From a virus (Duplodnaviria; Caudoviricetes), in the IMG/VR virus record IMGVR_UViG_3300032030_000047, positions 1 to 64,000 of that record: DNA of 64,000 nucleotides; one strand, 5' to 3'. The number at the start of each line of letters is the position of its first letter. Position 1 is the first letter of the stretch. The notes beneath the pieces were generated by a model. The model had not been told where the DNA came from and did no database searches. It saw only the letters and a program-made list of their open reading frames with translations. The position numbers and the translations under genes are program-made. Below are positions 2,305-33,233 of this stretch, in pieces.

Positions 2305-3120
2305 TTAGAATTGAATTACTTCAATTTCTTCAACTTCATCATTTTTTAATTCAAACCCCTGCGCCTGCATCGTTAATATATTTAAAACAAATGCTCTTCC
2401 TGTAAAAGCGGCGCCAGTATCCATATCTAATCGTCCAGTACTCAATTTAATAGGTACGGCTTTATCACAAGATTTACAATCTGCATACTCGTGCAAATAT
2501 GGCGTGGGTGTATGTCCAAAAACTACTGTGCGTCCTAATTTCCAATCATTATCAAAGCTAGTACGACTCCAAAGTAAATATTCGGCATCGTATTCATCTA
2601 CTGGCTGGGAAGAATATTCTTTTTCTGCAACACGCGTAAATGAGTTGTAGCCGCCACCCGAATGGCAAAAATCTAATTTTCCATAACTAAAAGTATAAGG
2701 AAGTTTTTCTAGTTGCTCTACAATATCCATAGGCATACCATCCATAATCCAATCTGTAAGTGTAGACATTCCTCCATTATACAAACTAGTCTGAATAGCT
2801 TCATATCTATAATCAAAACCGCGTGTACAACTTAAAAAATGATGCGCTTCTTCACGTGTAGGCGGGGTATAAGGATGATATTCTTGTTTTAATTCACGCG
2901 CAGCGGCGCAAAACATATCTTCATGATTTCCTTTCAAATAGCCAACTTGCGGATCAGCAAGAAGCTCCTTCATAATACGATATCCATCTTCTCCACGATC
3001 ACAAGCATCGCCGCCGAAAATTATACTACATTCAGGATCCTGTGTCTTACAATAATTCATAATAGCATCAAATAATGGACGACAGCCGTGAATGTCTGTA
3101 AAGAAAAATATATCGTGCAT
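2305..3120 (-). CDS. Calcineurin-like metallophosphoesterase (Ser/Thr phosphatase-like)
   Basis: DIHG, GDACDRG and GNHE motifs. Confidence 0.85.
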   Translation of the reverse strand: MHDIFFFTDIHGCRPLFDAIMNYCKTQDPECSIIFGGDACDRGEDGYRIMKELLADPQVGYLKGNHEDMFCAAARELKQEYHPYTPPTREEAHHFLSCTRGFDYRYEAIQTSLYNGGMSTLTDWIMDGMPMDIVEQLEKLPYTFSYGKLDFCHSGGGYNSFTRVAEKEYSSQPVDEYDAEYLLWSRTSFDNDWKLGRTVVFGHTPTPYLHEYADCKSCDKAVPIKLSTGRLDMDTGAAFTGRAFVLNILTMQAQGFELKNDEVEEIEVIQF

Positions 3121-3135
3121 TTGAATTATTCTCCT

Positions 3136-3276
3136 TCAGGGTTCTGGATGGGTACTTTCATACTTTCTAATCTTCCTATTTAGCTTACCAATTAGTCCTT
3201 TATTTAGTTCTTCTCCACGTGCGCGTAGAAGGTCACGGCGGTACCGCCACCGTAGATACTGTGTATACTCGTTCAT
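3136..3276 (-). CDS. Small hypothetical protein (46 aa)
   Basis: ATG at 3276 overlaps the upstream stop; open to TGA. Confidence 0.5.
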   Translation of the reverse strand: MNEYTQYLRWRYRRDLLRARGEELNKGLIGKLNRKIRKYESTHPEP

Positions 3277-3476
3277 TTTATCCACTCCTTATTCCATTTA
3301 GTATTATCATCTTTATCTTCTGGATTTATACTTAATAGTGAAATTGCACTATCATACGCATCCAATAGTGTTTCTTGCTTTTGAACCAAATCGCAGTAGC
3401 CGCAATTGCGATCACAATCACGGCTAATGCATTCACGTTCGATTTTAAGGATACGAATTACTTCAACCTTTTCCAT
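3273..3476 (-). CDS. Small Cys-containing hypothetical protein
   Basis: MEKVEVIRILKIERECISRDCDRNCGYCDL; 3' part of the track ORF. Confidence 0.6.
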   Translation of the reverse strand: MEKVEVIRILKIERECISRDCDRNCGYCDLVQKQETLLDAYDSAISLLSINPEDKDDNTKWNKEWIK

Positions 3477-3729
3477 ATACATCCTCGTATTTTCTAGCAG
3501 GAGATAATTCTTCTGGTGTAAAAGCCCAAGTCTCTCCATAGTCACTATAATTATATATATTACCATCTGGGCCGGGCCATCCCCAAATATAAATGATGCT
3601 ATCGTCAGAGACTGTTTTATGAAGCTCTGATTTTTTAATAGGTAAAATAATAGCATCTTTATCTGTGCGATGCTCTCCATACATAGTACCCCAAATAATA
3701 TCTGGCAGGTTATCAAAAGTAATTATCAT
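3463..3729 (-). CDS. Hypothetical protein
   Basis: ORF with RBS, operon-like spacing. Confidence 0.6.
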   Translation of the reverse strand: MIITFDNLPDIIWGTMYGEHRTDKDAIILPIKKSELHKTVSDDSIIYIWGWPGPDGNIYNYSDYGETWAFTPEELSPARKYEDVYGKG

Positions 3730-3731
3730 TT

Positions 3732-5105
3732 TTACTCCTGTGCGATAGCTTCCTGCGCTTCTTCAATATCAGGAGCATCGGCTTCTTCTTTATAAATCCC
3801 TTCTAGAATTTTAAAACTGATGTTTTTCATCTTATATACTTCAAACTTTGAACGGTTCATAATACGTGCAACTACACCTTCGCGCACATGGGACTTTCCA
3901 ATGGGGTCAGGTCCATCATAATACTGTTCAATCTTACGCACTACATATTCGCCGGGATTTACATCCTCAGGAATTACAAAGCGCTCGAATTCCATTACAT
4001 GATTTACGCCCCACTTATCACAATAGGTCTGAATCTGATCAGGAGACAACTCAATTTGCTCGCCATCTTCATTTACCATAGTGATTCGATATACATATAC
4101 TTCACAACAAGGTTTAATTTCAGTAGTCCATCCATCTTCATCTACTACACAAGAAAATGCGCGTTCATACTGTCCATCCTGCTGGCATCCATAGGAGAAA
4201 GTAGTAATATCACCATACATCTTGCTAAACTCTTTATCTTTAATCTTAGAGTTAGCTACTTGTCCCATAATGGGTGCGCCATTCGGCCCTTGGAATCCCA
4301 CGATTTCGTAATAGACTACCATTCCCTTAGGAAGCTTACCTTCAAACTTCGCAGCCATAGCATGGCGGAAATCATCGCTTTCATAGAAGCCACCTTGCCG
4401 CTTACCATCAAGAACAACACGCCGAGTCCCAGTTACATAACCATACTCATAATAATCCTTACCATGTCGCCGCAGAAGCTTATCCAACCAAGTACGCTTC
4501 GTATGAAGCAGAGGAAGATGGCCCGTTCTACCTGAGGTTCCATGCATCTTAAGCGTAAGCTGAATTTCATCACCATTGTGGAACTTATCCAGATTATAGG
4601 CAACCTGCTCAGTATCTACATGTTCAAAGAAAGTCGGCGCATAGTTTACTTTAGCCTTCTTAATCTTTTCACCATGCCATTCTCCACGAGGATTACACTT
4701 AGGAATATACTTTTTACAGATTTCCTCACCATTGAGAACAGTAATCTGATCGCCCGGCTTCAGTTCACTAATGTTCGTGAACTCGGACAGACAAGTAATA
4801 TTCAGATATAGTCCATTAGACTTTTCTCCACGCAACTTAATAGCTTTTACATTGCGCTTATCAGGATCCATATAACCGCCAATGTTATTGCCGTTTTCAT
4901 CCTTCTTACGCACGAGGTTATTAATTTCGCAGAACTTTTCAGACAGCTGCAAATCGCAAGGGAAATATACACCAATATCCCCAATATGAGTATCAAGACC
5001 GACGATTACATCCTCTTCAAATACACGTAGAATCTGAAGGCGGTCAGCATTAGAGTGCGGCCGCAGATCTTTTACTTGTACAACAAAACCACAATGTTCG
5101 CTCAT
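3732..5105 (-). CDS. ATP-dependent RNA ligase with N-terminal OB/tRNA-binding-like domain (DRB0094/Rnl5-like)
   Basis: Motif I KMHGTS, motif IV EGVV, motif V YKMKN; N-terminal HSNADRL OB-type segment. Confidence 0.85.
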   Translation of the reverse strand: MSEHCGFVVQVKDLRPHSNADRLQILRVFEEDVIVGLDTHIGDIGVYFPCDLQLSEKFCEINNLVRKKDENGNNIGGYMDPDKRNVKAIKLRGEKSNGLYLNITCLSEFTNISELKPGDQITVLNGEEICKKYIPKCNPRGEWHGEKIKKAKVNYAPTFFEHVDTEQVAYNLDKFHNGDEIQLTLKMHGTSGRTGHLPLLHTKRTWLDKLLRRHGKDYYEYGYVTGTRRVVLDGKRQGGFYESDDFRHAMAAKFEGKLPKGMVVYYEIVGFQGPNGAPIMGQVANSKIKDKEFSKMYGDITTFSYGCQQDGQYERAFSCVVDEDGWTTEIKPCCEVYVYRITMVNEDGEQIELSPDQIQTYCDKWGVNHVMEFERFVIPEDVNPGEYVVRKIEQYYDGPDPIGKSHVREGVVARIMNRSKFEVYKMKNISFKILEGIYKEEADAPDIEEAQEAIAQE

Positions 5106-5138
5106 TTAAATCATCCTTTCTCTCTTTCTTACATAATA

Positions 5139-5166
5139 ATTATATCATAATTTTAGGAATTATCAA
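5139..5166 (-). promoter_or_regulatory. Sigma-A-like promoter, one of ~17 near-identical copies
   Basis: TTGATA-N16-TATAAT; same TTGAC(T/A)-N16-18-TATAAT motif at 5355, 7180, 9566, 11179, 13678, 14820, 17014, 19178, 22198, 26039, 27938, 28443, 33681, 35332, 41539, 59519. Confidence 0.75.
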
Positions 5167-5378
5167 TCTTTAATCTTTTTGCAATTTCATCCAGTATTAT
5201 ACTACGCATACTGTCATACGCGGAAGATTCATTAGAATCAAAACGAATATAATCTAATAATTCAAAGTACAAACCTCTATTTGAAAACTGGTTTACTTTG
5301 TTTTTATATTCTTCATAAGTAGTCATATACATTTTCTTCCTTTCTTACATAATAATTATATCATAAATTTAGAAAATG

Positions 5379-5594
5379 TCAATTATCCATTTCTCTATGT
5401 TCAATCCGCCATTCACCAGTATCATCATCGCACCAAACAACTAAATTTACACGCTGCCCGTTTTTCAAACCATGTACATAGTTATGTGAATTATAGGATA
5501 GCGGGCCGATTTCTTCAATTGTATCCGCTGCGCCAGAATCAAGCACTAATTCATATATCGTATCTGATAAGTAATCTTTTAATTCATTGCTCAT
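5379..5594 (-). CDS. Hypothetical protein
   Basis: ORF track, overlapping start/stop with neighbour. Confidence 0.6.
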   Translation of the reverse strand: MSNELKDYLSDTIYELVLDSGAADTIEEIGPLSYNSHNYVHGLKNGQRVNLVVWCDDDTGEWRIEHREMDN

Positions 5595-5872
5595 TAATAT
5601 AAATCCTCACTAAATAATTCTTGAATAGTAGGTTCTGTAATATAAGGATTAATTTGATCGTGGAGATAAGCATGTTTCCACGCCTCTACTCTATTATAAA
5701 AATTATCATGCTCATCAAGGAAACCCTGATCATTTTGATTGCTTTCAAAATCATCCTTAGAATATCCAAGTTCTTTTAGAATATAGAATGCATCACAATG
5801 ACGATGCACAGGCAGGATAATTTCTTTATTTTGTTTCTTATCATAAATACGAACCGCCGCGCTAGTAATCAT
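5594..5872 (-). CDS. Hypothetical phage protein
   Basis: ORF track, operon spacing. Confidence 0.65.
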   Translation of the reverse strand: MITSAAVRIYDKKQNKEIILPVHRHCDAFYILKELGYSKDDFESNQNDQGFLDEHDNFYNRVEAWKHAYLHDQINPYITEPTIQELFSEDLY

Positions 5873-5874
5873 TA

Positions 5875-6114
5875 TTATTTCTCCTCTGTCGTAAAGAAGA
5901 ATTCAGTCCATGATCCGACATCATACCAAGTTCTATCATTTTCTGTCCAAGTTCTAATATAATAACTAACAAACGGAGTCTTTTTATTCTCATTCGCTTG
6001 TTTAATAAAATCGTTAATAGAACGATATACATCTGCTGTAGTTTCACAATAAGCAATTTGTCTCTCTATTCCATTATGATTCTTGAACCATAGAGTCATT
6101 TTTCTTTTCCTCAC
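5875..6114 (-). CDS. Hypothetical protein
   Basis: ORF track; true start may be ATG ACT near 6099. Confidence 0.6.
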   Translation of the reverse strand: MRKRKMTLWFKNHNGIERQIAYCETTADVYRSINDFIKQANENKKTPFVSYYIRTWTENDRTWYDVGSWTEFFFTTEEK

Positions 6115-6289
6115 TTTCTTGTATTATTCCATCGTAATTAAGCTGCATTTTGGTTAAAATCTCAAAACCACATTGTGGGCAATTAATATAGGAATTTGCA
6201 TGTATATCTTCTGGTTTATAGCCTAGCAATGCACCGCAATTATTACAGCGGCAAATTAATCCATAGTATCTTGGGCTTAGTATAATCAT
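6074..6289 (-). CDS. Small zinc-ribbon protein
   Basis: CNNC...CPQC. Confidence 0.65.
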   Translation of the reverse strand: MIILSPRYYGLICRCNNCGALLGYKPEDIHANSYINCPQCGFEILTKMQLNYDGIIQESEEKKNDSMVQES

Positions 6290-7008
6290 ACCACTTTACA
6301 GTACCATACAATAGTACATTTTTCTCCTTTTACTTCCTTATGTGCTTTTACTTTCATTCTTAGCTTAAAAGCCATACCAACTTCAAAATTTTTGGTGCCT
6401 GTTTCCCATATATACATATTACCTTCGGCATCACGCATATAATGCGTATGCTTTTCTCCAAAGTGGTCCTCGCGCGTGATATTTTCTTTAACAACGATTT
6501 CTTTTTCAAGCCAATCATTTTCTTTTCCTTGGTAGGTGCTATTACTAGTAACACTCCCATTAAGAAGATTACTGACAAGCTTGGCAACTTCTTCATGCGG
6601 TTTCATCCTATCTTCATAATCTTGCACTTGCTCCCACTTCAATTGAATAGGTTCAATGCCATTTAAAACTTCGGGCGTGGGAAATTTACTAGGAGTATAA
6701 TACCCAAAAGTAGTATTACGCCAAATATTAGTGCGGTCATTTTCAGCCCACCTCTCTACTACTCGTTCGTCTCCTTTATATAAAGTAATATAACCTTTTT
6801 CATCAAATCCAAAAGCATGGCGAGCATTGAAATCCATTAGATTGTTTTTAACTGGTTCATTAGGATACATGCGCTGATACTCTGCGTCAGAATACCAACG
6901 AACTTTTTTAAGTCCCTTTGTCGTAAGTACGTTTACATATAAACGCTTGTTTTCTTCAAATGGCTCACCTTGCTGTTCCAAGTTTTGATACGTCTTAGCA
7001 ACAGGCAT
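6286..7008 (-). CDS. Hypothetical protein, possible C-terminal OB-fold
   Basis: 240-aa ORF with RBS. Confidence 0.7.
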   Translation of the reverse strand: MPVAKTYQNLEQQGEPFEENKRLYVNVLTTKGLKKVRWYSDAEYQRMYPNEPVKNNLMDFNARHAFGFDEKGYITLYKGDERVVERWAENDRTNIWRNTTFGYYTPSKFPTPEVLNGIEPIQLKWEQVQDYEDRMKPHEEVAKLVSNLLNGSVTSNSTYQGKENDWLEKEIVVKENITREDHFGEKHTHYMRDAEGNMYIWETGTKNFEVGMAFKLRMKVKAHKEVKGEKCTIVWYCKVV

Positions 7009-7211
7009 TTGACTTCTCCTCGTTTTCTTTAGTCAGCATTTGTCTATATTTCTCGCGCAATTCTTCATTAGTATATTCTTCATAAGAGGTAAAATGATAC
7101 TGCCTCATAATCTCTTCAACCAGATTTTCAATCATTTCCTTATCCATTTTAATTATCCCCTTTCCCTCTTTCTATAAAAATTATAACATAAATTTAAAAA
7201 AAGTCAAATGG

Positions 7212-7430
7212 TCATTCGACCATTTGACAAAGTTGAAAGGAAGTGAATTTTTGGTTTGGTACTGCGTCTACATAATCCAATAAAGGAATCATATAGATTA
7301 TAGGGTCATTTTCAAGTTGGTATACACATCGTAGCTGTTCTACTAGAGGGTTTCCTGCTTTTGCCATTGCCATTCCTTGCTGGGCAATAGCTGGGATATC
7401 TTGTTCTTCGATAATTTTCTTATTCCACAT
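7212..7430 (-). CDS. Hypothetical protein
   Basis: ORF track. Confidence 0.55.
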   Translation of the reverse strand: MWNKKIIEEQDIPAIAQQGMAMAKAGNPLVEQLRCVYQLENDPIIYMIPLLDYVDAVPNQKFTSFQLCQMVE

Positions 7431-7431
7431 T

Positions 7432-8370
7432 TTATTCTGCCTTTATATTAATATAATTTAATACTTCTTTCATTCCTAATCCACCTTCATCCCAAGGCTT
7501 CATACAATATTCCCATAATTTAGGATGCGTTTTCTTTAATAGCTAGAAACGATTTGGTTCTTTTTCCATATGGCATCCAAATGCACAGAAAATGCAGCCA
7601 GTGCGATCTTCACCAGTTGTTTCTAACTTACCTTTACGATTTTTCTTTATTTCACCATAAACTGATGCATATGGCAGGTTCTTATCTTGAATATATTGTA
7701 AAATATCTTGCTCTGTCCAAAATGATAAAGGACGACTAATCGGTTCAGCGGTATTAAAAGCATTGCAGCCCTGCTGAAGCCATATATTGCGGCGACTAAT
7801 TGATTCTTCGGCGAGAGTTCCTATAATTGGATATCGGCCCGTTTCTTTTTGATATTTATGTGCTGGTTGTTTTTTCATAACATCACAGCAATAGTCACTA
7901 ATATTAAAAGGTGCATCAACTAAGTATGCCCATTTACCATCCCCAAAACCAAACGTCTTGGTAGGAATTTCTCCGCGTAATGTTTTCGCGCGAACAGAAT
8001 TGGGATCACGTTTAGCGGTATATACATATCCTGCTATACGTTTACTAATAATAGGATATCCAAATTCTTCTATTACCTATCTAAACGAACGATTCGGCCG
8101 CCGAATTTCTACATTATCTATAGTTTTAACGAATTCTTTTAATTCTGGATATTCCAAGCCAGTATCAAAAAATACCGCAGGAATGTCAGGATATAAAGAA
8201 CGAGCGATATCCAATAAAACAGTGCTGTCTTTTCCGCCGGAGAAAGATACGTATACTTCACCATTGAAGTGATCGTAAAATTCTCGTATTCGTAATTCTG
8301 TTTTTATGATTTTTGCTTCTAATGGCAACGCCTAAGCCTATTTTAAATCAGTTGCAGTAAATAAAGCCAT
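7432..8370 (-). CDS. PAPS-reductase-family protein (312 aa, code 15, 4 in-frame TAG)
   Basis: SFSGGKDS PP-loop, RTGCIFC; fragments 8077-8328 and 7543-7878 join through TAG: MALFTATDLK(Q)A(Q)ALPLEAK. Confidence 0.85.
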
Positions 8371-8774
8371 TATTCTTCCCTCACTATAAAATCAAATGGC
8401 TGTTTATTCAACCATTGTTCTGAATATTTATTTACATTATAATAATAATACTCACCGTCTGATACATATGCATGTTCAAGATTCTTATCAAAGTCTTCGC
8501 TTTGAATAAACTCAATATACTTTTCTTTAGGCATTAAATAACCGTACTGCGCCATCCAGTCTTCTACTGGGACTGCTTCTAGGAATAAATCATTAATTTC
8601 TACATCATGCAAATATGGTACTTCTTCAGCATCCATATAGTCTTTAGGGATAACAAATATAAACAATCCCTTTTCAGTAAGTTCTGGCGACATTTGATTT
8701 GTAAGTTTTCCAACGCACCATTGTCCATTGTGTTTATATAGGACGCGCATTCCATCGTGAATTTTTAGATCCAT
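8370..8774 (-). CDS. Hypothetical protein
   Basis: 134-aa ORF with RBS. Confidence 0.65.
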   Translation of the reverse strand: MDLKIHDGMRVLYKHNGQWCVGKLTNQMSPELTEKGLFIFVIPKDYMDAEEVPYLHDVEINDLFLEAVPVEDWMAQYGYLMPKEKYIEFIQSEDFDKNLEHAYVSDGEYYYYNVNKYSEQWLNKQPFDFIVREE

Positions 8775-8785
8775 TATGTCTCCTC

Positions 8786-9547
8786 TTATAAAATGTATTT
8801 AATATAATAATGCATTAATTCATATTGCATTGATTCAATTAGTTGCAGTCCTTCTGTTTCAATTGCTTGCTGGCTAGCTGTTTTTTTAAACTCATTGCGG
8901 CAATCGTCTAAGAGATTAGCAATATTTTCACAGCCATCATTATAATATGCAGTATTAGATTCTAGCGTATCTCTTTTAGCATATAAAGCTTCTTGATAAT
9001 TAAGAGGTAATAGTTTAAGTAATTGAGATGCGCTAGTAAAATTCAAAAAGTTATTTTTCATACTATATAAACGTAAAGCATGTGAATAACGTTTTCCAGC
9101 GGGCATATTACGCTTAGTAAGCTGATGCGCCATTCCGGCCATTGCGTATAGCATATGAGAATAATTACAATGTACCATTTTATTTAAGATATATTCATTG
9201 TTTAAATATTTTTCCAAAATAGCGGTATATTTAGGTTCATAATATTTATAAGTTCCAACAAAGCATTCAACACTATTTGGAGATGTTTTCTTAAGAAGAT
9301 TAAGCGCAAGACGAATATCTTTATACATACACTTGCCATCTTCGACTTCAAATTCACCGCTATATGGCTCGCGCGCGGTTGATAAATCTTCAATAGTAGG
9401 AAAAACAAATGTAAAAGTATCAATATCGCTATTAGTATTATCTAAACAATAATTTTGACTACCAATTAAGACAGTCATTACTACTTCATATCCTTTATCT
9501 TTGACCCATTGATGGTGCCTTTTAACTGCTTCTATAATATCCATCAT
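8786..9547 (-). CDS. Pol-beta-superfamily nucleotidyltransferase (PF10127/RlaP-like)
   Basis: GSQNY...SDID motif. Confidence 0.75.
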   Translation of the reverse strand: MMDIIEAVKRHHQWVKDKGYEVVMTVLIGSQNYCLDNTNSDIDTFTFVFPTIEDLSTAREPYSGEFEVEDGKCMYKDIRLALNLLKKTSPNSVECFVGTYKYYEPKYTAILEKYLNNEYILNKMVHCNYSHMLYAMAGMAHQLTKRNMPAGKRYSHALRLYSMKNNFLNFTSASQLLKLLPLNYQEALYAKRDTLESNTAYYNDGCENIANLLDDCRNEFKKTASQQAIETEGLQLIESMQYELMHYYIKYIL

Positions 9548-9565
9548 CTTCCTCCTTATAAATTA

Positions 9566-9594
9566 ATTATATCAGAAAATATGAAAAAAGTCAA
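9566..9594 (-). promoter_or_regulatory. Sigma-A-like promoter
   Basis: TTGACT-N17-TATAAT. Confidence 0.75.
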
Positions 9595-9629
9595 GCAATT
9601 GATTGCTTGACTTTTCAGAAAGAGAGAAT

Positions 9630-11120
9630 TTATAGAACACTAGAAATTGGCGCATAGCGCTCCCCTTCTAGTACAGTTCGCATCATTTCGACTCCATCTT
9701 TACCTGAAAGCACTCCTTCAAGCGCGCTCATAGAGAAGCCGCTGCAATAGGAGAAACCCGGGCCAATGGCTGGTATATTAGGCTGACGAGCATCGAGATT
9801 CCAAAAGATTACCCTTGGTGCGGTATATCCTGCCCACATCCACTCTTTAGTTTTAGCTTCAATGAGCGTATCAATCTGTGAGCGATTCATAGGACGAACA
9901 CGACCCCAGCGATCAAGGGAACGTGCGCCGCAAGTCAAGCCATCATCGAATTCCATATCTGAAAATATGTAAATCGTTTTAGGCATTTCGGAATCTGGCA
10001 CATGATTACGCAGACCAGTCTCCAACAGCATATCAAATACTGCCTCAAGATTCGTATTCTGTCCCCAGTCTGCATCTACTGCACGCTTGAATTTATCATA
10101 GATATCGACGCCTTTAAATTCAACAAGCTGTGGATTGGCGCTAAAGGTAATAAAGTGATTCTGGAACGGGCCTTTTCCACGTTCAGCAATGTATGCGCCC
10201 ATAGAAACCGCGGCTTCCATAGGAGTACCGCTCATACTGCCGCTGACATCAACTACTGCAATGCCAGGCTCTTCACGGCCATTGTAATAATCTTTTAGAT
10301 TATCCCAATACTTCTGCCACGCCTGACGCTCAGTAGCAGAGGGAGTGCGCCATGTACTGAGAATCTGATGCGCGATTTCGACAGGATTCAGTACACTTGC
10401 ATTTACTTTAGCGTCCTTGCGGGACATAAATTCAGCATAGCGCTCCTTAGTTTCCTCGCGGCGCATAAAGGCATTCTTATAGAGAAGTCCTGCGCGAGAA
10501 GGTAGATGATCGAATGCAATCTGATTCCACCGATTCTGGCTCATAAGAGTTTCAACCAGATGGCAAGCTTTACGACCTTCAGAAAGCATTTTACGATACT
10601 CACGTTCGGTCATACCAAATTCGCGCACGAACTTACGCCCACGAATCTTACTCTCTTTAGAAGAGGCATTGATCGAAGGCATCCATTTATAAATAAGATG
10701 ATCTTCATTCTTATCAAGAACACGGAAAATATATCTCATCATTGCGTCTTCGCATGGCGTATCAAATAGTTCAAAAAGGTCATCATAACGACCATAAGTT
10801 GCCACCAGAGGAATTAGGTGTTCCATCTCCCGCTCATAATGAGTAGCTAGCCACTTAATACAGACGCGGAAAAATCGTCTTTCGCCTGCGCCACCGCGCA
10901 CGTCGCGCAGATAGAAGAGGCACTTCAGTGCGAGAGTAGCATTCTCTTCATATGCCTGCTTAAACATATTAATAACATCATCGTCTGAACGATTCCGCAT
11001 AGAACCGCCCATAGCAAACATATCTAGCACCTTATTAAGCGTGGTGACGTGGGTAATAGCGCCATTTTCGGTAAGCGCATAGTTAGTATCCATTTTCAGA
11101 TTCTTTAGTAGTTCGTTCAT
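9630..11120 (-). CDS. DUF2828-family protein, helical N-terminus plus vWA domain (Ro60/TROVE-like architecture)
   Basis: TENGA...LRDVRGGAGER N-terminus; DVSGSM MIDAS, SDMEFD, FWNL; start MNELL after AGGAG. Confidence 0.8.
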   Translation of the reverse strand: MNELLKNLKMDTNYALTENGAITHVTTLNKVLDMFAMGGSMRNRSDDDVINMFKQAYEENATLALKCLFYLRDVRGGAGERRFFRVCIKWLATHYEREMEHLIPLVATYGRYDDLFELFDTPCEDAMMRYIFRVLDKNEDHLIYKWMPSINASSKESKIRGRKFVREFGMTEREYRKMLSEGRKACHLVETLMSQNRWNQIAFDHLPSRAGLLYKNAFMRREETKERYAEFMSRKDAKVNASVLNPVEIAHQILSTWRTPSATERQAWQKYWDNLKDYYNGREEPGIAVVDVSGSMSGTPMEAAVSMGAYIAERGKGPFQNHFITFSANPQLVEFKGVDIYDKFKRAVDADWGQNTNLEAVFDMLLETGLRNHVPDSEMPKTIYIFSDMEFDDGLTCGARSLDRWGRVRPMNRSQIDTLIEAKTKEWMWAGYTAPRVIFWNLDARQPNIPAIGPGFSYCSGFSMSALEGVLSGKDGVEMMRTVLEGERYAPISSVL

Positions 11121-11179
11121 TTTCTTTCTCCTTTTCATCTTAGCCTTTAACAAGGCCGTAGGTTTTCTTTATATTTATA

Positions 11180-11590
11180 TTATATCATAATTTCAGAGGA
11201 AGTCAAATGTTTAAGTTCTTCAATAAAATCCTCATATTTCTTCAAATAATTAGAATCAATTTTAATGATTTCATAGCTATCAGCATAATCGCCACCATCA
11301 TGCTCAATAGAACCATACCATCCTGGGCCAGTATATTTTTCCCAATTTAGAATGTTTTGTTCCCATTCGGTATAATACAAATAATCCCAATCTTCTTTAC
11401 ATGTAACATTAAAAATTCTCATCCAAGTTTCATCATCAGGAAGGGAAATACCACTTTCTGCCACATAACGTGTACCAGCCAGCGCAACTGCATCATGTCT
11501 GATTGCACTAGCCTTATCATAATGATGAGTTCCATCTATAGATACATAAACTGGCCTAGAATTAATTACTGATTCATATTTAATCTGCAT
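11180..11590 (-). CDS. Hypothetical protein
   Basis: ORF track. Confidence 0.6.
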   Translation of the reverse strand: MQIKYESVINSRPVYVSIDGTHHYDKASAIRHDAVALAGTRYVAESGISLPDDETWMRIFNVTCKEDWDYLYYTEWEQNILNWEKYTGPGWYGSIEHDGGDYADSYEIIKIDSNYLKKYEDFIEELKHLTSSEIMI

Positions 11591-12143
11591 CTATTTCCCT
11601 CTTATTCCATATATCTTCTTTAATCTGATCCAAGTTTACTGGATAGCAATTATGAGCATCCATTTCTACATGATAACACATTTTATCCCAATCTGCCCAC
11701 TTATCTTTGGTATGGCTGTGGCCACAAAGATTAGCTACTTTGCGCCAAGCCTCGTTATTTCCGGTCAAAGTGGGATAATGCGATAGGTAGAAACTCCATT
11801 TTCCACTCTTAATAACAGTAGCATAAGAATCCCTTTCTGTGCCGAGAAGCTGGATTTTGGGGCACGCGGGTAGGATTTTTCCTATCTTTCCTAAAGTATC
11901 GTGATTCCCGAGAATCCATATTTGGTGTCCCTTAAGCCGCTGCAGATAAGGAATAGCAGTATCAACATCACTAAGAGCAATATCACCTAGATTATAAACA
12001 AAATCTTCGTCTCTTACAACCGAGTTCCAACGTTCCACGATAGCTTCGCACATTTCTTCTGTAGAAAAGAAGCCACGCGGTTCGTATAGGAACGGTTTGT
12101 TATGCATTAAATGCAAATCAGAAGTAAACCAAATATCTCCCAT
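11580..12143 (-). CDS. Metallophosphoesterase (possible RNA 2',3'-phosphatase)
   Basis: SDLH, NLGD, GNHD, SHYP, GHSH motifs; adjacent to the kinase. Confidence 0.85.
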   Translation of the reverse strand: MGDIWFTSDLHLMHNKPFLYEPRGFFSTEEMCEAIVERWNSVVRDEDFVYNLGDIALSDVDTAIPYLQRLKGHQIWILGNHDTLGKIGKILPACPKIQLLGTERDSYATVIKSGKWSFYLSHYPTLTGNNEAWRKVANLCGHSHTKDKWADWDKMCYHVEMDAHNCYPVNLDQIKEDIWNKREIDAD

Positions 12144-12144
12144 T

Positions 12145-12672
12145 TTATGACTCCTTCCAGTAGGGATCCATCATAAAGGAGAAATCTCCTTTCTTATCTC
12201 CTACTTCAATAATTTCCGTGGCGCGGCGATCTTCTTCAAGAGTCGGCGCCTTAAAGGAGCGGAACATGCCACGAATTACATCAGGGCCTACATAAGCCAA
12301 GCCCTCGCGCGTTGCGTCCCGCTCACAACATTCAGTATACAAGGTATAGAATACGACATACTTAATTTCATAATCTACGCCAATGCGGTCAAGCGCATTG
12401 GTAAGCTTCTTGCGCGAAAACTCATTAAGATGAGTAGCATCTGCAATTACATCAAAACCATAAACAAGAGTCTGCGCCAAGGTGCCTACAAACTTTTTGA
12501 AAACTTCCTTTTCATGGGCAAAATAATCTTCGCCTTCTTTAAGCATAGAAAATCGAATCTCATCACGAGAAACATAACGAATATCCTGCTCACTATGCTC
12601 TGCAATGAAAGCATCGCTCCAAGTGCTTTTGCCACAAGCGCTCGGGCCGCAAAGAATATATAAAATCGCCAT
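12145..12672 (-). CDS. P-loop polynucleotide kinase (T4 Pnk kinase-like, AAA_33)
   Basis: GPSACGKST, SRDEIR, DATH. Confidence 0.85.
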   Translation of the reverse strand: MAILYILCGPSACGKSTWSDAFIAEHSEQDIRYVSRDEIRFSMLKEGEDYFAHEKEVFKKFVGTLAQTLVYGFDVIADATHLNEFSRKKLTNALDRIGVDYEIKYVVFYTLYTECCERDATREGLAYVGPDVIRGMFRSFKAPTLEEDRRATEIIEVGDKKGDFSFMMDPYWKES

Positions 12673-13532
12673 TAGTAATTCCTCCTAAGAATAAACTGTG
12701 CATGAGTATGTAATGTAGGAATAAAAAATAGATTTTTCCAAGCCTCTGTGTAATATGGAAGTTGATAATGTGTCTCAAAAATGGGAGTATAATCACCAAC
12801 TAAGTCAATGAGATCTTTTAACATCCAACTAAAATAATCCTCTTTCATTTCTTGTTCCCAGCCGTTATCTTTCCATTGATATTTCATAAGAAAATGAATA
12901 AAATTGCGCCAGATTGCAATAGTACTATGTTCTTTTTCAAATTCTTTAATATATTTTGGATCAATATTAAGCTGGCTAATGATATGCTCACGCTGAGTAG
13001 TAGTTACAATATTTTTATTATAATCAAAGTACATATCTCGAATAGTAATGTACTTCGGCTGCAATTCTTCAATAAGGCGCCGGATAGTTTCTTTACCGTC
13101 AGGACTAGAGGAAAAAACCTCATGTAACACAGAGGAAAAGTTAATGCAGATTTCATCAGGCCGATAATGCTGTTTTGCCATAGCAATCATATCTTCAAAA
13201 CTATCATGTCGATCTGCAAAAGTTCTTTCTTTATGAAAGAAGAAGGTATTTTTATCCGCAGGAGACTCAAGTTTAGTCCAAGCCTCAACAATCAGATCAT
13301 CGTTAATGTCATAACCGTAGAAAGTAGTATTGGGAAACAGCGGCGCGAGCATACGAATCATAGCACCATCGGCGCATCCGAAGTCAATAACAAGCTTCGC
13401 GCCGATGATTTTATCCATAAAGAAAGCTTTATCCCATACCGACTTACTCATTTCTTCAGTATAAATATCAAAATTCATTTTTACGCTCCTTCGTATATTC
13501 TTTCGGCATTTTGCCATATAGGATAAACTCAA
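12672..13532 (-). CDS. Class I SAM-dependent methyltransferase
   Basis: VIDFGCADG, YGYD, SSVLHEV; start could be MNFDI. Confidence 0.8.
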   Translation of the reverse strand: MSLSYMAKCRKNIRRSVKMNFDIYTEEMSKSVWDKAFFMDKIIGAKLVIDFGCADGAMIRMLAPLFPNTTFYGYDINDDLIVEAWTKLESPADKNTFFFHKERTFADRHDSFEDMIAMAKQHYRPDEICINFSSVLHEVFSSSPDGKETIRRLIEELQPKYITIRDMYFDYNKNIVTTTQREHIISQLNIDPKYIKEFEKEHSTIAIWRNFIHFLMKYQWKDNGWEQEMKEDYFSWMLKDLIDLVGDYTPIFETHYQLPYYTEAWKNLFFIPTLHTHAQFILRRNY

Positions 13533-13739: not shown

Positions 13740-14195
13740 GATTATGATTGCCAGTCTTAATGGGGCGACTTTTGCTAAAACGCATTATCCCACTGGCGCC
13801 GTAGGGTGGCGAGTTTAGGTGCCGCCGCCTACACACCTATGATACACGGTCGTTATTAGCAGAGTGACCGGTACCTCTGAGGCCGATTTAACGAGCTGGC
13901 CGCGTACTCGATGACACTCTCAAACCCAATTCTGCCGGATGCATCTAACCTGAGTGTCCTTTCCATACTTCCACATGCCTGTGACCTTTCAGCTGGTTAT
14001 AAGGTGCTTCGGGCAAACATATAAGCCAAAGGAGTTATTAGCTGTCGCTTATATGCTGATATCCCTGGTCCCTCGCCTTAACCCGTAAGGTTCATTTATG
14101 TAACCTACACCGACACTTATTTATCACGCAAAAGCGCTTGCGGACGGATTGCACGGGTACGTCTCCGGTGGGCCTCCTATCTTCGTATGGGGTTA
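13708..14195 (-). ncRNA. Candidate large structured ncRNA (~490 nt), family unknown
   Basis: No credible ORF, GC-enriched, many stems and an H-type pseudoknot (13801-13840), ends in a terminator. Confidence 0.65.
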
Positions 14196-14204
14196 CCAAT
14201 ATTA

Positions 14205-14432
14205 TTAATCTTCCCTAAAAGCGCAGTCGATTTCTTCTTTGGAAAGACAATAATCCTCTTCATCATTATACATTATTTCTTTCAAATACAAGTCAAAAAC
14301 ATCGCTATGACCATAGCTTGTCACTACATGATCTGCAGCCTGACTCCACCCATTAGCGGCTACAATACCTTCATCGTAAGTTTCTTTATCCCTATAACTA
14401 TCATACCAACCAACTTTATACTTATAAAACAT
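14205..14432 (-). CDS. Hypothetical protein
   Basis: ORF track. Confidence 0.6.
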   Translation of the reverse strand: MFYKYKVGWYDSYRDKETYDEGIVAANGWSQAADHVVTSYGHSDVFDLYLKEIMYNDEEDYCLSKEEIDCAFRED

Positions 14433-14794
14433 TATTTATGCTCCTTTCGATAGTCGATGCGATTTTCGCGCACATCAGGAACCTCTTCCCAGACTTTGCA
14501 ATCTTCAATAATAAACTGATTAAAATCGTGCCAGAATCTCCAATCCATATCAAGGCCATTATACCAACCATAATGCTGTCTACCAGTCTTACGATCGTGC
14601 ATAATAATCTCAACATACATCATCATACCGCTATTATCCTCAAACTTATGAATAAAAGTTCTGTTTTGAGAAATATAAAAGCGACCAAGCCATAGTTCGT
14701 CATCTTCAATACACTTATTTACATAGCGGCAATACTGATTAAACCAACGTTGATGGTTCTTACGCTTATGAGATTTCATACTGTACTTACGCAT
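14432..14794 (-). CDS. Hypothetical protein
   Basis: ORF after promoter 14820. Confidence 0.65.
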   Translation of the reverse strand: MRKYSMKSHKRKNHQRWFNQYCRYVNKCIEDDELWLGRFYISQNRTFIHKFEDNSGMMMYVEIIMHDRKTGRQHYGWYNGLDMDWRFWHDFNQFIIEDCKVWEEVPDVRENRIDYRKEHK

Positions 14795-15617: not shown

Positions 15618-15953
15618 TTACTTTTCGGAATTCATAAGAATACGCTGATGCTCGATTGCATCTTCAATATGAGAATGGTCATATGTAGTACCATCGGTGC
15701 ATTCCCAAGTTGCGGCAATAAGTTTCAGATTGCGCTTAATCTTATTGCGCTCAGTGGCAGACATAAACTGTCCTGTTACTGGATTTGCATGTGCTTCAGG
15801 TACAAGGTCTTTAAGGCGCATTCTGCACCAACCCTGACCGCATTGCCCTGCTTGGTCTGTATCATAGCATAGTGCATAACTGTGATTATCAATCACTACA
15901 TACTGATAAACTTCATAACGTTTGCCATTCTTACGATGATACATAATTTCCAT
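15618..15953 (-). CDS. Hypothetical protein
   Basis: ORF with RBS. Confidence 0.6.
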   Translation of the reverse strand: MEIMYHRKNGKRYEVYQYVVIDNHSYALCYDTDQAGQCGQGWCRMRLKDLVPEAHANPVTGQFMSATERNKIKRNLKLIAATWECTDGTTYDHSHIEDAIEHQRILMNSEK

Positions 15954-15982
15954 TTCTCAGATACTTCCTTTCTTTATTTAAG

Positions 15983-16096
15983 CAGTCCCTGTTGGAATCG
16001 GACCAACACGTGTGGAGTCATGGTGCCAGATTGGAGAGTTGAACTCCAAATACCCTATCTGACAAGTCCACTGCGCTACCATTACGCTAAGGGACT
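15983..16096 (-). tRNA. tRNA-Gln(UUG) interrupted by a 43-nt insert (16021-16063) between positions 34 and 35
   Basis: AGTCCCT/AGGGACT-G acceptor, D arm, GTGGA-CTT|insert|TGAC-TCCAC, T arm GTTGG-TCCGATT-CCAAC. Confidence 0.8.
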
Positions 16097-16099
16097 ATA

Positions 16100-16202
16100 A
16101 ATGCGGGTGAGGATTTGAACCTCACATAGTTGGCTACCCGCTCAATTTAATGGCAAAATGTCACCAACCTCGCGCAGCGTCTACCCATTTCGCCACCGCA
16201 TT
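16100..16202 (-). ncRNA. tRNA-like RNA with acceptor, D and T arms but a long non-canonical arm in place of the anticodon arm
   Basis: AATGCGG/CCGCATT, GGCGAAATGGGTAGACGC, GTGAGG-TTCAAAT-CCTCAC. Confidence 0.6.
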
Positions 16203-16204
16203 AG

Positions 16205-16289
16205 CGACACTAGCACGGCTCGAACGTGCATACCCTTTCAAGTAACCGCAGATTAGCAATCTGGTGCGTTACCATTCCGCCATAGTGTC
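16205..16289 (-). tRNA. tRNA-Ser(GCU)
   Basis: Cloverleaf, long variable arm, G73. Confidence 0.85.
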
Positions 16290-16298
16290 ATTTTATTA

Positions 16299-16478
16299 TT
16301 AAGAATACCATTTTGGCATCTGTTCAAATATAGCTACACCTTCAGTATAACCTAAAGAGTGTAAACATCTTACCATTAAATCATCAGCACGCACATGGGC
16401 ACCTTCTTCATCATATACATCATTGTCTAAATCTTCTGCGATTTTTTCCATCCGTTTAGCAAATTCTTCTTTAGTCAT
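16299..16478 (-). CDS. Small hypothetical protein (59 aa)
   Basis: GAGG RBS, MTKEEFAKRMEK...PKWYS. Confidence 0.6.
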   Translation of the reverse strand: MTKEEFAKRMEKIAEDLDNDVYDEEGAHVRADDLMVRCLHSLGYTEGVAIFEQMPKWYS

Positions 16479-19920: not shown

Positions 19921-20163
19921 ATATAGTAGATTTGGGATTCCACCCCGTGGTCTACCACACCACACCTCTGCTATCTTGATGAGCTAAAGCGACACGTCTA
20001 CGCATGAGGCACTAACATAAGGCGACAAACATTTTACGCAGTTTTCCCATACCTGCAACCTTAACCTACCTGGGTCTAACGTTATACACCGGTGTTGTGT
20101 CACGGATTTCTTTCCACCCGGCTTAGTCCTACGGCTATTCTTTGGAAGGGGAATAGCACCCAG

Positions 20164-20237
20164 AGCCATCGAAGAGACTTGAACTCCTGACCCACACACT
20201 TCTTTATGTGCCACTCTACCAACTGAGCTACGACGGC
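20164..20237 (-). tRNA. tRNA body with unreadable anticodon loop (undetermined or pseudo)
   Basis: Intact acceptor, D and T arms; loop TAAAGAAG is 8 nt and lacks U33. Confidence 0.65.
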
Positions 20238-20817: not shown

Positions 20818-20859
20818 ATTATAGGTACCTCCAAAATGAATTGCGCTTTTCGCGCGAAG

Positions 20860-21401
20860 CCTCCAGCCGACGATTCGAACGCCGATTTTGTGGTCACGTC
20901 TCCAATACTTATCCTTCTACCTCCATTAAAATTTTTTCTACTTCATAATCTGAAGCATAGTGTACTATAGAGGATGCATTGTTCTTTGGCGCTACAAAAC
21001 GTAAAGTTTTTCGTGTACTACATTCAGTAATGGGAATGAGATACCCTTGTCCATTCCAATTGGTATAAAAATAATCAATTTCAGTATCTAAATATTTTCG
21101 ATGATTATCATATTGTCCTTGTTTAACATTTCGAGTAGAGCGACATTCAAATGTTACTCCCGAAATATCTTCATCAATTGGATGGCAACTTTTACATTGA
21201 ATACGAATAAACTTACCGTTTATATCTGCTACAAAATCATATCTACAAGGAGAAATTGGTTGACTTACTACAATACCTAATTTAGTAAAATCTAATTGGC
21301 ATTGTAATTCAGTTATTGTGCCTTTTTGTATTGTATCCATATTTTTCCTAGGATAAGTTTAGTGACGTAGCCACACGTTCTGTCCCTTAGACTAGCCGGA
21401 G
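20860..21401 (-). tRNA. tRNA-Arg(ACG) split by a 470-nt insert (20896-21365) that carries an endonuclease ORF
   Basis: CTCCGGC/GCTGGAG acceptor, D arm GGACAGAAC as in Arg(UCU), TGTGG-CTACG|insert|GA-CCACA, CGGCG-TTCGAAT-CGTCG. Confidence 0.78.
20909..21340 (-). mobile_element. PD-(D/E)XK homing endonuclease (I-Ssp6803I/PDDEXK_5-like) inside the tRNA-Arg insert
   Basis: KGTITE...RYDFV...IQCKS...IDYF pattern. Confidence 0.8.
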
Positions 21402-24809: not shown

Positions 24810-25345
24810 ATTCTTCATCCGGGATTAATTTATGGGATATTCATCCCATTCTTGATTTCGGGGAATCTCCCCTGCGGCCAAGAGAAGCCTTATCTACGGC
24901 GCGAGAGGCGTGCTAGGTTCTTGACCTAGCGGGTTGCGCTTCGGCGTAGGGGTGGACCAAGCCTTTCAACTAGCCCAAACGGTAGTTTTTCAGTCATACT
25001 GGACATCCTGTAATAGAAAATGCAACTAGTATTCAGCACCATTTCTCGATGCTGGCATCTCCTAATAGGAAGCACGTACTCATTAAGCACATACCACGAC
25101 TAGTTCCGACATTTATAACGCGCGCGTCTCAGTCGTCAGCAATCGCGCTAGATGAATGGTCTATTTTTTACTTGCTACTGCCATCACCATCGAAAGCGCA
25201 AGCTATATATTTATCTAACCCCTATAGTGGGTGGTTTTCGCGTTTTATATACCGATTCGGAAAACATAGAGACCGGTTGTCCGTTTCATATGGTAGAATA
25301 CATCGACCGGTACGGGCGTCCGGTCGGAACGGCTCATACTACCAA
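24810..25345 (-). ncRNA. Candidate large structured ncRNA (~535 nt)
   Basis: No credible ORF; at least 7 hairpins, e.g. CGACCGG/CCGGTCG, CAGCATC/GGTGCTG, GCTAGGT/ACCTAGC, ATGGGAT/ATCCCAT. Confidence 0.55.
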
Positions 25346-25351
25346 AAATAC

Positions 25352-25413
25352 TAGGCACATTAAAAAAACTTTTAATAGCAAGTTATTCCTCATAGGTTTG
25401 CTGCGTGTGCCTA
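25352..25413 (-). ncRNA. Mini Y-RNA-like element
   Basis: TAGGCAC/GTGCCTA stem followed by ACGCAGCAA. Confidence 0.55.
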
Positions 25414-25417
25414 TAAC

Positions 25418-25478
25418 ATGACACCTTATATTTTATCAGAATATATGTAAATGATTATAAAATTGCTGTCGGTGTCAT
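25418..25478 (-). ncRNA. Mini Y-RNA-like element
   Basis: ATGACACC/GGTGTCAT stem followed by GACAGCAA. Confidence 0.55.
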
Positions 25479-25479
25479 T

Positions 25480-25730
25480 TTAATTACCGAGGCCCTCGCA
25501 TATACGTAATATGTGGATACCTCGTGCCTCCTGTACCTTACAGGTCGGTCTGTCTATTCTGTATACATGCTATTTTAGTATCACTCTTTTGGCATAGCTG
25601 CCTCACCACGGCTGTCGTCGCTCACGAGACCTGCGTCCGTAGATAGTATGGGCGTACCATTGCTATCTATTACCACAGCGCCGGACCTCAACCGGCCAGT
25701 CATATCCTGTCAATTCAGGCTTTATGTGGT
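25480..25730 (-). ncRNA. Candidate structured ncRNA (~250 nt)
   Basis: Stems ACCACA/TGTGGT, TAGATAG/CTATCTA, CCTGTA/TACAGG, CGAGG/CCTCG. Confidence 0.45.
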
Positions 25731-25901: not shown

Positions 25902-26019
25902 CGGGAGATAGAGGAGTTGAACCTCTCTAGCGCGGTTAATTGTCTGATATAGGGCCTGCCCCTATTATATCTCTTTGGTATCAGGCCAGCCGCGTGCTAA
26001 TCCGATTAGCGAATCTCCC
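25902..26019 (-). tRNA. tRNA-Asn(GUU) interrupted by a 47-nt insert (25940-25986) between positions 34 and 35
   Basis: GGGAGAT/ATCTCCC-G acceptor, CGCGG-CTG|insert|TTAA-CCGCG, AGAGG-TTCAACT-CCTCT. Confidence 0.8.
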
Positions 26020-33112: not shown

Positions 33113-33145
33113 ATCCTTTAATCTCCTTTTATATAAAATAATAAG

Positions 33146-33233
33146 CAGCCCCTGAAAGATTCGAACTTTCATAACCTCGGCAGAGGATATAACGGTTTTA
33201 GAGACCGGCGTCTTGCCATTAGACGAAGGGGCT
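33146..33233 (-). tRNA. Amber-decoding tRNA (anticodon CUA), long variable arm
   Basis: AGCCCCT/AGGGGCT-G, CCGGT-CTCTAAA-ACCGT, V arm CCTC-TGCC-GAGG, GAAAG-TTCGAAT-CTTTC. Confidence 0.88.

Follow-up and report, generated by a model that had tools for sequence, protein, structure and literature searches.

How could a phage obtain a usable transfer RNA (tRNA) from a gene whose anticodon loop is interrupted by a second tRNA-like sequence? This question is raised by a stretch of 64,000 nucleotides (nt) from a Caudoviricetes virus (positions 1 to 64,000 of IMG/VR record IMGVR_UViG_3300032030_000047), which we refer to as the window. It contains a tRNA-Gln(UUG) gene with a 43-nt insert in the anticodon loop, and the insert has the shape of the top half of a tRNA. 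Our answer, which we favour tentatively, is that the gene encodes a functional tRNA-Gln(UUG) and that the insert is a mini-tRNA intron; RNase P and a tRNA 3'-end endonuclease would cut it out, and an RNA ligase of the phage would seal the exons.

Results

The interrupted gene and its junction

To find homologues of the tRNA-Gln gene, we scanned IMG/VR and JGI metagenomes for exact words from its 5' half; we designate the fetched loci by L numbers. They included three kinds of uninterrupted allele (L001/L010, L005 and L004), all of which have the anticodon loop CTTTGAC; ARAGORN calls them tRNA-Gln(ttg). Only the split CTT-insert-TGAC gives back this loop from the window gene, and thus the insert lies between U34 and U35. 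The uninterrupted homologues thereby bear out the original prediction, which had placed a tRNA-Gln(UUG) gene at 15983-16096 with an insert exactly between these two bases. The gene lies on the minus strand (16096..15983). The outer tRNA is intact, with acceptor strands AGTCCCT/AGGGACT, a D arm, an anticodon stem GTGGA/TCCAC, a T arm and a discriminator G73. CCA is not encoded; the gene is followed by C and then TTA. Exon 1 is identical in L003, L007, L008 and L009.

The gene was missed by ARAGORN with default settings and by an Rfam scan at gathering thresholds. An intron-tolerant ARAGORN run found the gene and its 43-nt intron, with the junction one base off and the identity miscalled as Pro(tgg); other alleles were called Thr or Glu. 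These identities are ruled out by the uninterrupted homologues, and the Pro reading of the window allele also gives an A instead of a G at position 37.

The shape of the insert

The insert reads GTCAGAT / AGGGTATT / TGGAG / TTCAACT / CTCCA / ATCTGGC / ACCA. The original prediction had described it as a 7-base-pair (bp) acceptor stem, a 5-bp T stem, a 7-nt T loop and a terminal ACCA, and we confirmed this arrangement: all 12 pairs are standard or G-U pairs in a fixed tRNA top-half geometry, and only 1 of 20000 shuffled sequences did as well. The folding check that had been proposed also came out in its favour. In the RNAfold prediction for the precursor the outer cloverleaf coexists with the inner hairpin (-38.5 kcal/mol, z -2.0), and the insert on its own adopts the inner fold (z -2.6). 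Minimum free energy folds with an outer cloverleaf and an inner tRNA-like fold were likewise obtained for the 83- and 86-nt alleles of tRNA-Gln described below and for a tRNA-Asn gene of the window; the precursors of the L009 allele and of the tRNA-Asn gene of L016 did not fold cleanly.

The 43-nt insert is not a bona fide tRNA, as its D and anticodon arms are replaced by the 8-nt linker, the GG of which could mimic G18/G19 of the D loop. Rfam gave a single alignment at the insert, at 19.1 bits, which combines the D arm of the outer tRNA with the T arm of the insert. The insert does have all the features of a minihelix-type RNase P substrate: a 7-bp acceptor on a 5-bp T stem, a 7-nt T loop, ACCA, and U34 at position -1. 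It is the minimal form of a tRNA-shaped insert design.

Other inserts at the same site and in tRNA-Asn

In related rumen phages the same tRNA-Gln gene occurs either without an insert or with a different, unrelated one, of which there are three (83, 86 and 76 nt), and across this series the exons differ at no more than 5 of 64 nt. The insert and its allelic REPLACEMENTS are all tRNA-shaped. In the three longer inserts a 7-bp acceptor begins at the first insert base and is stacked on a 5-bp T stem; their T loops are TTCGATC, TTCGATC and TGCAAAT, respectively. The 83- and 86-nt inserts form 12 of 12 pairs in the same rigid geometry as the window insert. The 76-nt insert of L009 forms 9 of 12 in this rigid test and has a T stem with a bulged C. 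The longer inserts have a D arm as well and can be aligned over their full length to the Rfam tRNA family (43.0, 29.3 and 23.4 bits; gathering score 29); the anticodon arm is their only degenerate part.

The only other copy of the 43-nt insert was found in L008, where it is identical (43/43) between flanks that are unrelated to those of the window (about 60% identity). In place of covariation within this insert, we rely on the structure that unrelated inserts have in common. When 21 nt of its T arm were scanned against viral contigs, only an unrelated coding match was obtained, and a 24-nt scan for the 86-nt insert gave matches only inside tRNA-Gln (L040 and L041). Blastn-short searches with all inserts, run against all fetched loci and the genome, found no free-standing copy of any of them.

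The same acceptor/T-arm geometry is found in the tRNA-Asn(GUU) gene of the window. Its insert forms 11 of 12 pairs and has the loop GGCAGGC and the tail AA. A homologous 46-nt insert in the tRNA-Asn gene of L016 (6523-6642) differs by one compensatory pair and has the loop TTCAACT and the tail A. ARAGORN miscalled both genes as Thr(ggt).

A tRNA-Arg(ACG)-like gene (20859-21401, minus strand) is interrupted by 470 nt that contain the gene of a PD-(D/E)XK endonuclease (open reading frame (ORF) 20909-21340, minus strand; PF11645, E 5e-17). A contig from a DNA run lacks exactly those 470 nt (joint 20895 to 21366), and therefore an intron-less tRNA-Arg(ACG) allele exists; the relatives L007, L012 and L016 have an uninterrupted tRNA-Arg(acg).

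Selection on exons and inserts

A clean insertion leaves the exons intact, so the restored 7-nt loop is by itself no proof of splicing. The inserts might be selfish insertions at the DNA level, or the gene might be decaying, with an inactive tRNA-Gln and a phage that uses the tRNA-Gln of its host. This explanation seems to us very improbable. It agrees with the finding that inserts come, go and swap among close relatives: the downstream flanks of the window and L009 are 92% identical and their inserts are different, and thus the exchange of inserts outpaces the divergence of their surroundings. It also agrees with a contig of DNA run X1 that has 20 nt in place of 16008-16070. This contig encodes an uninterrupted tRNA-Gln(UUG) with the anticodon stem GCCGG/CCGGC, and therefore interrupted and uninterrupted alleles coexist in one sample. 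However, the exons of insert-bearing alleles are only 0 to 5 of 64 nt apart, and exons and insert are nearly invariant, whereas the flanks are unrelated in most comparisons (about 60% identity by global alignment). L007 and L016 differ by 1 change per 86 insert nt and by 5 per 64 exon nt, and four of the five exon changes are compensatory. Among alleles with the same 86-nt insert, compensatory pairs are found twice in the anticodon stem of the outer tRNA (GTGGA/TCCAC versus ACGGA/TCCGT) and once in its T stem (GTTGG/CCAAC versus GATGG/CCATC). In addition, the same design recurs in tRNA-Asn, and no uninterrupted tRNA-Gln(UUG) was found elsewhere in the 87.6-kb record, which is about half a genome. 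Because the compensatory changes in the outer stems occur in alleles that bear an insert, they point to a tRNA-Gln gene that is functional though interrupted, and not to a pseudogene. The inserts themselves are constrained, and comparison of the alleles suggests that they are probably mobile, interchangeable cassettes.

The conservation of the insert, which is at least as high as that of the exons, can also be read in another way. The mini-tRNA may be the product that matters, either as a decoy for host defences that target tRNAs or as a partner of a Ro60-like protein, and tRNA-Gln would be mainly a scaffold whose halves are perhaps not rejoined. An excised RNA with an ACCA or GCCA tail would have a mature tRNA 3' end, and the phage genomes encode a Ro60-like protein and other free-standing tRNA-like RNAs (a 99-nt element and its relatives, see below). 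We nevertheless consider this improbable, as compensatory changes have preserved the pairing of the outer anticodon and T stems, which argues that the outer tRNA itself is used. Moreover, the finding of four unrelated inserts at one site agrees better with an interchangeable intron than with a specific effector RNA.

The ends of the insert

If the insert is an intron, which enzymes might define its ends? The original prediction held that RNase P would free exon 1 exactly at position 34. This fits: the first insert base is the +1 base of the inner acceptor stem, and a cut at the RNase P position would therefore release exon 1 precisely there. The 5' junction is flush at inner +1 in the window insert, the three other unrelated Gln inserts and the two Asn inserts, and all Gln alleles have a U at -1. 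A tRNA shape whose junction with exon 1 is flush at inner +1, the RNase P cleavage position, is the only property that the inserts share. Comparative anatomy thus supports a 5' end of the intron that would be set by RNase P. The RNA subunit of bacterial RNase P contacts an RCCA tail, and such a tail is present in two alleles (ACCA in the window and GCCA in L009).

The 3' ends are more diverse. The insert had been predicted to end in CCA; this is true of the window, with its tail ACCA, but it is not general, as the six insert types of the lineage have the tails ACCA, GCCA, AC, AT, AA and A. For comparison, we examined 169 ordinary tRNA genes (those of the related phage genomes G000, G001, G002, G004, G005 and G006 and of L007). 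NCCA is encoded by 66 of them, 95 end in N73-C74, mostly followed by U, and 8 have another base at position 74; within the genome of the window, 7 of 24 ordinary tRNA genes encode NCCA. The near-universal C74 suggests that an unusual rule of 3'-end maturation may operate in this phage-host system. Three of the six tails (ACCA, GCCA and AC) correspond to the two 3' endings encoded by the ordinary tRNA genes of the lineage, which would fit a cut by the normal tRNA 3'-end endonuclease. The original prediction saw no obvious enzyme for a cut after CCA, which was too strong: RNase Z of Thermotoga maritima cuts just after encoded CCA, and RNase E directly makes CCA ends in some E. coli precursors (PMC7479834).

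We searched the phage sequences for other means of excision. No group I core or ribozyme family was found in a gathering scan of the whole window, and a cmscan of 15900-16300 at E values up to 10 returned only tRNA and a chance match. As the insert is only 43 nt long, far below the group I core (P3-P8) of about 200 nt or more, and matches neither Intron_gpI nor any other Rfam intron family, a group I intron is rejected and the insert cannot self-splice. A bulge-helix-bulge (BHB) intron was also rejected: a 4-bp GTCA/TGAC helix can form in the window, but its second bulge would be 8 nt, and the pairing is missing in the inserts of L003, L007 and L009. No RNase P RNA was found in the window. EndA (PF01974) had no matches in G000, G001, G004, G005 and the complete genome G006, a search that covered phage records and whose controls matched in 4 archaea. 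Neither RtcB nor a metallo-beta-lactamase RNase Z was found in five related phage records, including the complete genome. Because the phage sequences yielded no group I core, RNase P RNA, EndA, RtcB or RNase Z, the tRNA-processing enzymes of the host are the natural readers of the tRNA shape.

An RNA ligase and repair genes of the phage

The window encodes a candidate for the exon-sealing enzyme in the ORF at 3732-5105. Its predicted product is an ATP-dependent RNA ligase that resembles the Rnl5 type, with an OB domain and a nucleotidyltransferase domain that contains the motif I lysine. K186, H188 and G189 (K186-x-H-G) are invariant in 18 homologues. The best Foldseek match was the RNA ligase of Naegleria gruberi (E 4e-12), obtained with a low-confidence model (mean pLDDT, the predicted local distance difference test, of 56). 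PF09511 (Rnl1) was not among the Pfam matches, and searches of PDB sequences, whether started from the ligase or from its profile, gave nothing useful. Rnl5-type ligases join a 3'-OH to a 5'-phosphate, which are the ends left by RNase P and RNase Z.

The ligase gene lies in an RNA repair module that spans 2305-13517 on the minus strand, from a Metallophos phosphatase to a methyltransferase (Table 1).

Table 1. Coordinates of the interrupted tRNA genes, their parts and the phage genes considered here. Positions are those of the window unless a locus is named.
Feature	Position	Strand	Remarks
Interrupted tRNA-Gln(UUG) gene, 114 nt	15983..16096	(-)	71-nt tRNA plus 43-nt insert; uninterrupted homologues
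Exon 1, 33 nt	16064..16096	(-)	Ends CTT; acceptor 5' strand, D arm, anticodon stem 5' strand, C32-U33-U34
Insert (intron), 43 nt	16021..16063	(-)	Between U34 and U35
Exon 2, 38 nt	15983..16020	(-)	Starts TGAC; U35-G36-A37-C38, anticodon stem 3' strand, variable loop, T arm (loop TCCGATT), acceptor 3' strand, G73
Inner acceptor stem, 5' strand GTCAGAT	16057..16063	(-)	First base directly after U34, so U at -1
Linker AGGGTATT, 8 nt	16049..16056	(-)	In place of D and anticodon arms
Inner T arm TGGAG / TTCAACT / CTCCA	16032..16048	(-)	5-bp stem, canonical 7-nt T loop
Inner acceptor stem, 3' strand ATCTGGC	16025..16031	(-)	Contiguous with T stem (12-bp coaxial stack)
Tail ACCA	16021..16024	(-)	Discriminator A plus CCA; 3' junction directly after
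83-nt insert in tRNA-Gln	L003 = L006		After U35; tail AC
86-nt insert in tRNA-Gln	L007, L011, L016, L040		After U34; tail AT
76-nt insert in tRNA-Gln	L009		After U34; tail GCCA
tRNA-Asn(GUU)	25902..26019	(-)	47-nt insert (25986..25940) after G34; same acceptor/T-arm geometry
Metallophos phosphatase	2305-3120	(-)	
RNA ligase, ATP-dependent, Rnl5/NgrRnl-like, 457 amino acids	3732..5105	(-)	N-terminal OB domain, motif I KxHG; PF09414, PF21189; phrog_968, E 2.5e-64
PAPS-reductase/PP-loop protein	7432-8370	(-)	
RlaP nucleotidyltransferase	8786-9547	(-)	
Ro60-like DUF2828/DUF7788 RNA-binding protein	9630-11138	(-)	
Calcineurin-like phosphoesterase adjoining the kinase (candidate 3' end healing)	11580..12143	(-)	PF00149; phrog_547
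Polynucleotide kinase-like P-loop protein (5' end healing)	12145..12672	(-)	PF13671; phrog_505
Methyltransferase	12672-13517	(-)	
Amber suppressor tRNA(CUA), 89 nt	33145-33233	(-)	Long variable arm; uninterrupted

Genomic setting and other tRNA-like elements

The source record of the window is a fragment of 87.6 kb (about 48% complete according to CheckV) from a lineage of rumen phages of roughly 190 kb; the complete relative G006 has 193 kb. The phage is present in gut data of sheep, goat and cattle, and it was found in two sheep-gut metatranscriptomes. Nearly all sizeable ORFs of the window are on the minus strand. A 3193-codon ORF is open only when TAG is a sense codon, which indicates TAG readthrough in late genes. 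In-frame TAG is present in the late genes (33-71 kb) and nearly missing from the early and repair genes. The original prediction had offered, among other roles, a lock on the decoding of TAG as Gln. This does not fit, as UUG reads CAA and CAG and the amber suppressor tRNA(CUA) is separate and uninterrupted.

The tRNA array comprises at least 24 genes between 16.2 and 33.2 kb of the window. One ARAGORN call at 20163-20237 (minus strand) has an 8-nt anticodon loop with the four-base anticodon aaga and scores 48.6 bits against Rfam tRNA. In three RNA runs the contig depth was about 130-580 at 24851-25718 and at 14001-14434, compared with 5-30 elsewhere. Matches to two RNAs that Rfam lists merely as sRNA genes lie here within the phage tRNA array: cow-rumen-3 at 24951-25095 (107 bits), inside the first of these high-depth stretches, and cow-rumen-4 at 33618-33676.

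Between tRNA-Ser(GCT) and tRNA-Gln lies a tRNA-like element of 99 nt (16101-16199, minus strand) that is called by no tRNA finder. It has relatives in L007 (7476-7603), L017 (6071-6196) and L016 (17850-17955) and is absent in L003; one strain variant also lacks it (joint 16099 to 16203). Its conserved parts are the acceptor ends GCGG.../...CCGC, a D arm of the Leu/Tyr type, GGCGRAATRGGTAGAC, and a T arm GTGAGG TKCAAAT CCTCAC, and its centre differs among the relatives in length and sequence. Rfam tRNA matches were also obtained at L008 932-991 (42.5 bits) and L011 843-911 (26 bits), both on the minus strand; their D, anticodon and T arms are good, but the acceptor ends are unpaired or missing. 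These could be permuted or otherwise unconventional tRNA-like genes. A weak YrlA-like match (23 bits) overlaps the latter region (L011 887-1006).

Discussion

A model for removal of the mini-tRNA intron

We have proposed a model that accounts for the shape of the insert and for its 5' junction. The gene, the junction, the tRNA shapes, the selection on the outer tRNA while it is interrupted, and the repair genes were observed; every enzymatic step that we build on them is conditional. We propose that the precursor folds as the outer cloverleaf, with the inner mini-tRNA sitting on the anticodon loop. Host RNase P may recognize the inner acceptor/T-arm stack, with its U at -1 and its RCCA tail, and would cut 5' of G+1. 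This cut would leave exon 1 ending in U34 with a 3'-OH. A tRNA 3'-end endonuclease, which could be a CCA-tolerant RNase Z or RNase E, would then cut after ACCA and leave exon 2 starting with U35 and a 5'-phosphate. As the outer stems would hold the two halves paired, the Rnl5-type ligase of the phage could seal the nick and produce the 7-nt loop CUUUGAC.

Several observations weigh against this model. The 3' cut is its weak link. Across the six insert types, the distance from the inner acceptor stem to the 3' junction is 1, 2, 2, 2, 4 or 4 nt, and no single ruler from the inner helix accounts for it. The tails AT, AA and A are unlike the usual endings of tRNA genes. For many RNase Z enzymes CCA is an anti-determinant. 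Should the host generate its CCA ends by exonuclease trimming, exon 2 would be lost. None of the contig joints listed skips 16021-16063, although at a depth of about 5 the assembled contigs say nothing either way; the contig joints near the tRNA-Gln site are strain variants. With regard to sealing, the complete relative G006 has the ligase and none of its 71 tRNAs is interrupted, and thus the ligase is a general repair enzyme and no dedicated splicing factor. The ligase gene and the introns do not go hand in hand. Splicing could borrow such an enzyme. Finally, the phage encodes a kinase and a phosphoesterase although the ends left by RNase P and RNase Z need neither. These two enzymes suit cleavage that produces a 2',3'-cyclic phosphate and a 5'-OH.

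This last point leads to a different account of a real intron. The insert may be removed by another endonuclease that leaves a 2',3'-cyclic phosphate and a 5'-OH; the kinase and the phosphoesterase would heal these ends and the ligase would seal them, in the manner of tRNA splicing in fungi and plants or of anticodon-loop repair by T4. The tRNA shape would then serve recognition, folding or a later role of the excised RNA. The kinase and phosphoesterase genes are adjacent, and they lie near those of the methyltransferase, RlaP, the Ro60-like protein and the ligase. The variation of 1-4 nt in the tails is also easier to understand if the outer anticodon stem sets the position of the cut, as the exonic loop nucleotides always total seven. 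Yet we found no candidate nuclease: EndA is absent from the five phage records and no ribozyme family was matched. The BHB-like GTCA/TGAC pairing of the window is missing from the other three Gln inserts. Moreover, removal by such an enzyme leaves unexplained why four unrelated inserts start at +1 of a 7-bp acceptor on a T arm. We therefore regard it as possible but unlikely, and we keep to excision by RNase P and a tRNA 3'-end endonuclease as our working model.

Significance

Protein-dependent splicing of tRNAs is regarded as an archaeal and eukaryal trait. To our knowledge, only self-splicing group I introns are known in the tRNAs of bacteria and phages. It is quite possible, and we put this forward with some reserve, that the locus represents a third route of tRNA splicing in bacterial viruses. 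This route would combine a mini-tRNA intron, host end-processing enzymes as splicing endonucleases, an Rnl5-type ligase and mobile cassettes (four unrelated ones at one site), and it would release a CCA-ended mini-tRNA that is perhaps functional. If RNase P and a 3'-end nuclease do make the cuts, introns would have a new way to persist, through mimicry of the most conserved RNA-processing substrate of the host. It would also be clear why gene finders miss these tRNAs or misname them (Pro or Thr for Gln), which distorts the tRNA inventories of recoded phages.

The locus makes the mechanism testable. With a precursor of 114 nt and a 43-nt intron that has the minimal shape of an RNase P substrate, it is the smallest and best-controlled substrate, and the phage supplies a ligase gene. 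Nature also provides a series of alleles for such tests, with no insert or with inserts of 43, 76, 83 and 86 nt, and with the tails ACCA, GCCA, AC and AT.

Comparison with known systems

The cuts that we propose have a parallel in RNAs that are freed by their own tRNA-like fold. McClain, Guerrier-Takada and Altman reportedly used acceptor/T-arm minihelices as model substrates of RNase P in 1987, and Wilusz et al. are said to have described mascRNA, a tRNA-like RNA released by RNase P and RNase Z, in 2008. The insert resembles them in its 12-bp acceptor/T stack, its T loop, a 3' RCCA or discriminator and a U at -1, and in both cases an embedded tRNA-like fold directs, or in our model would direct, exact cuts at its own ends. 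However, those RNAs are freed from a linear precursor without rejoining, whereas here the flanking tRNA halves would need to be religated.

For religation, the closest parallels are the Pnkp/Rnl1 system of T4 and the nick-sealing Rnl5 ligases NgrRnl and DraRnl. Here too the genes for a kinase, a phosphoesterase and an ATP-dependent ligase are present in the phage, the nick to be sealed would be in an anticodon loop, and NgrRnl is the best match of the ligase model. T4, in contrast, repairs the damage that a host anticodon nuclease inflicts on an uninterrupted tRNA, and it does so with Rnl1; here the break would be programmed by the intron and the ligase is Rnl5-like.

With group I introns the insert shares a position in the anticodon loop, including 34/35, a patchy distribution and the existence of intron-less alleles, but at 43 nt it is far below the size of their core and matched no Rfam intron family. 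The tRNA introns of archaea and eukaryotes, which depend on a BHB, EndA or Sen, and RtcB or Trl1, are likewise short, non-self-splicing, located in the anticodon loop, removed by proteins and sealed by a ligase. They differ in lying at 37/38 and not at 34/35; the phage genomes yielded no conserved BHB, EndA or RtcB, and the host is presumably bacterial.

The tRNA-Gln intron of the window belongs to a published class of phage tRNA introns whose mechanism is unexplained; it is an anticodon-loop insert relative to intron-less alleles, and it has a tRNA-like fold. Devoto et al. (2019, Nat Microbiol; PMC6784885) reported 'enigmatic' introns in the tRNAs of Lak megaphages, one of which 'itself may encode a tRNA'. 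Their sequences were identical across samples, and software placed the junction one base off when compared with intron-less alleles (PMC6784885). A jumbo-phage survey of 2026 counts such introns, which 'could encode another tRNA' (PMC13037316). Neither paper gives a mechanism or a structural rule, and our literature searches on nested or tRNA-like introns returned nothing beyond these two (PMC6784885, PMC13037316). Like the Lak introns, those described here are short inserts in the anticodon loop of tRNAs of stop-codon-recoded gut phages, and ARAGORN shifts the junction of the tRNA-Gln gene of the window by one base. Unlike the Lak phages, which have genomes of about 540 kb, the phages studied here are rumen phages of roughly 190 kb. 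The insert of the window is the minimal 43-nt top half. One gene of this lineage displays four unrelated tRNA-shaped inserts as well as empty alleles, and the first insert base is always the +1 base of the inner acceptor stem.

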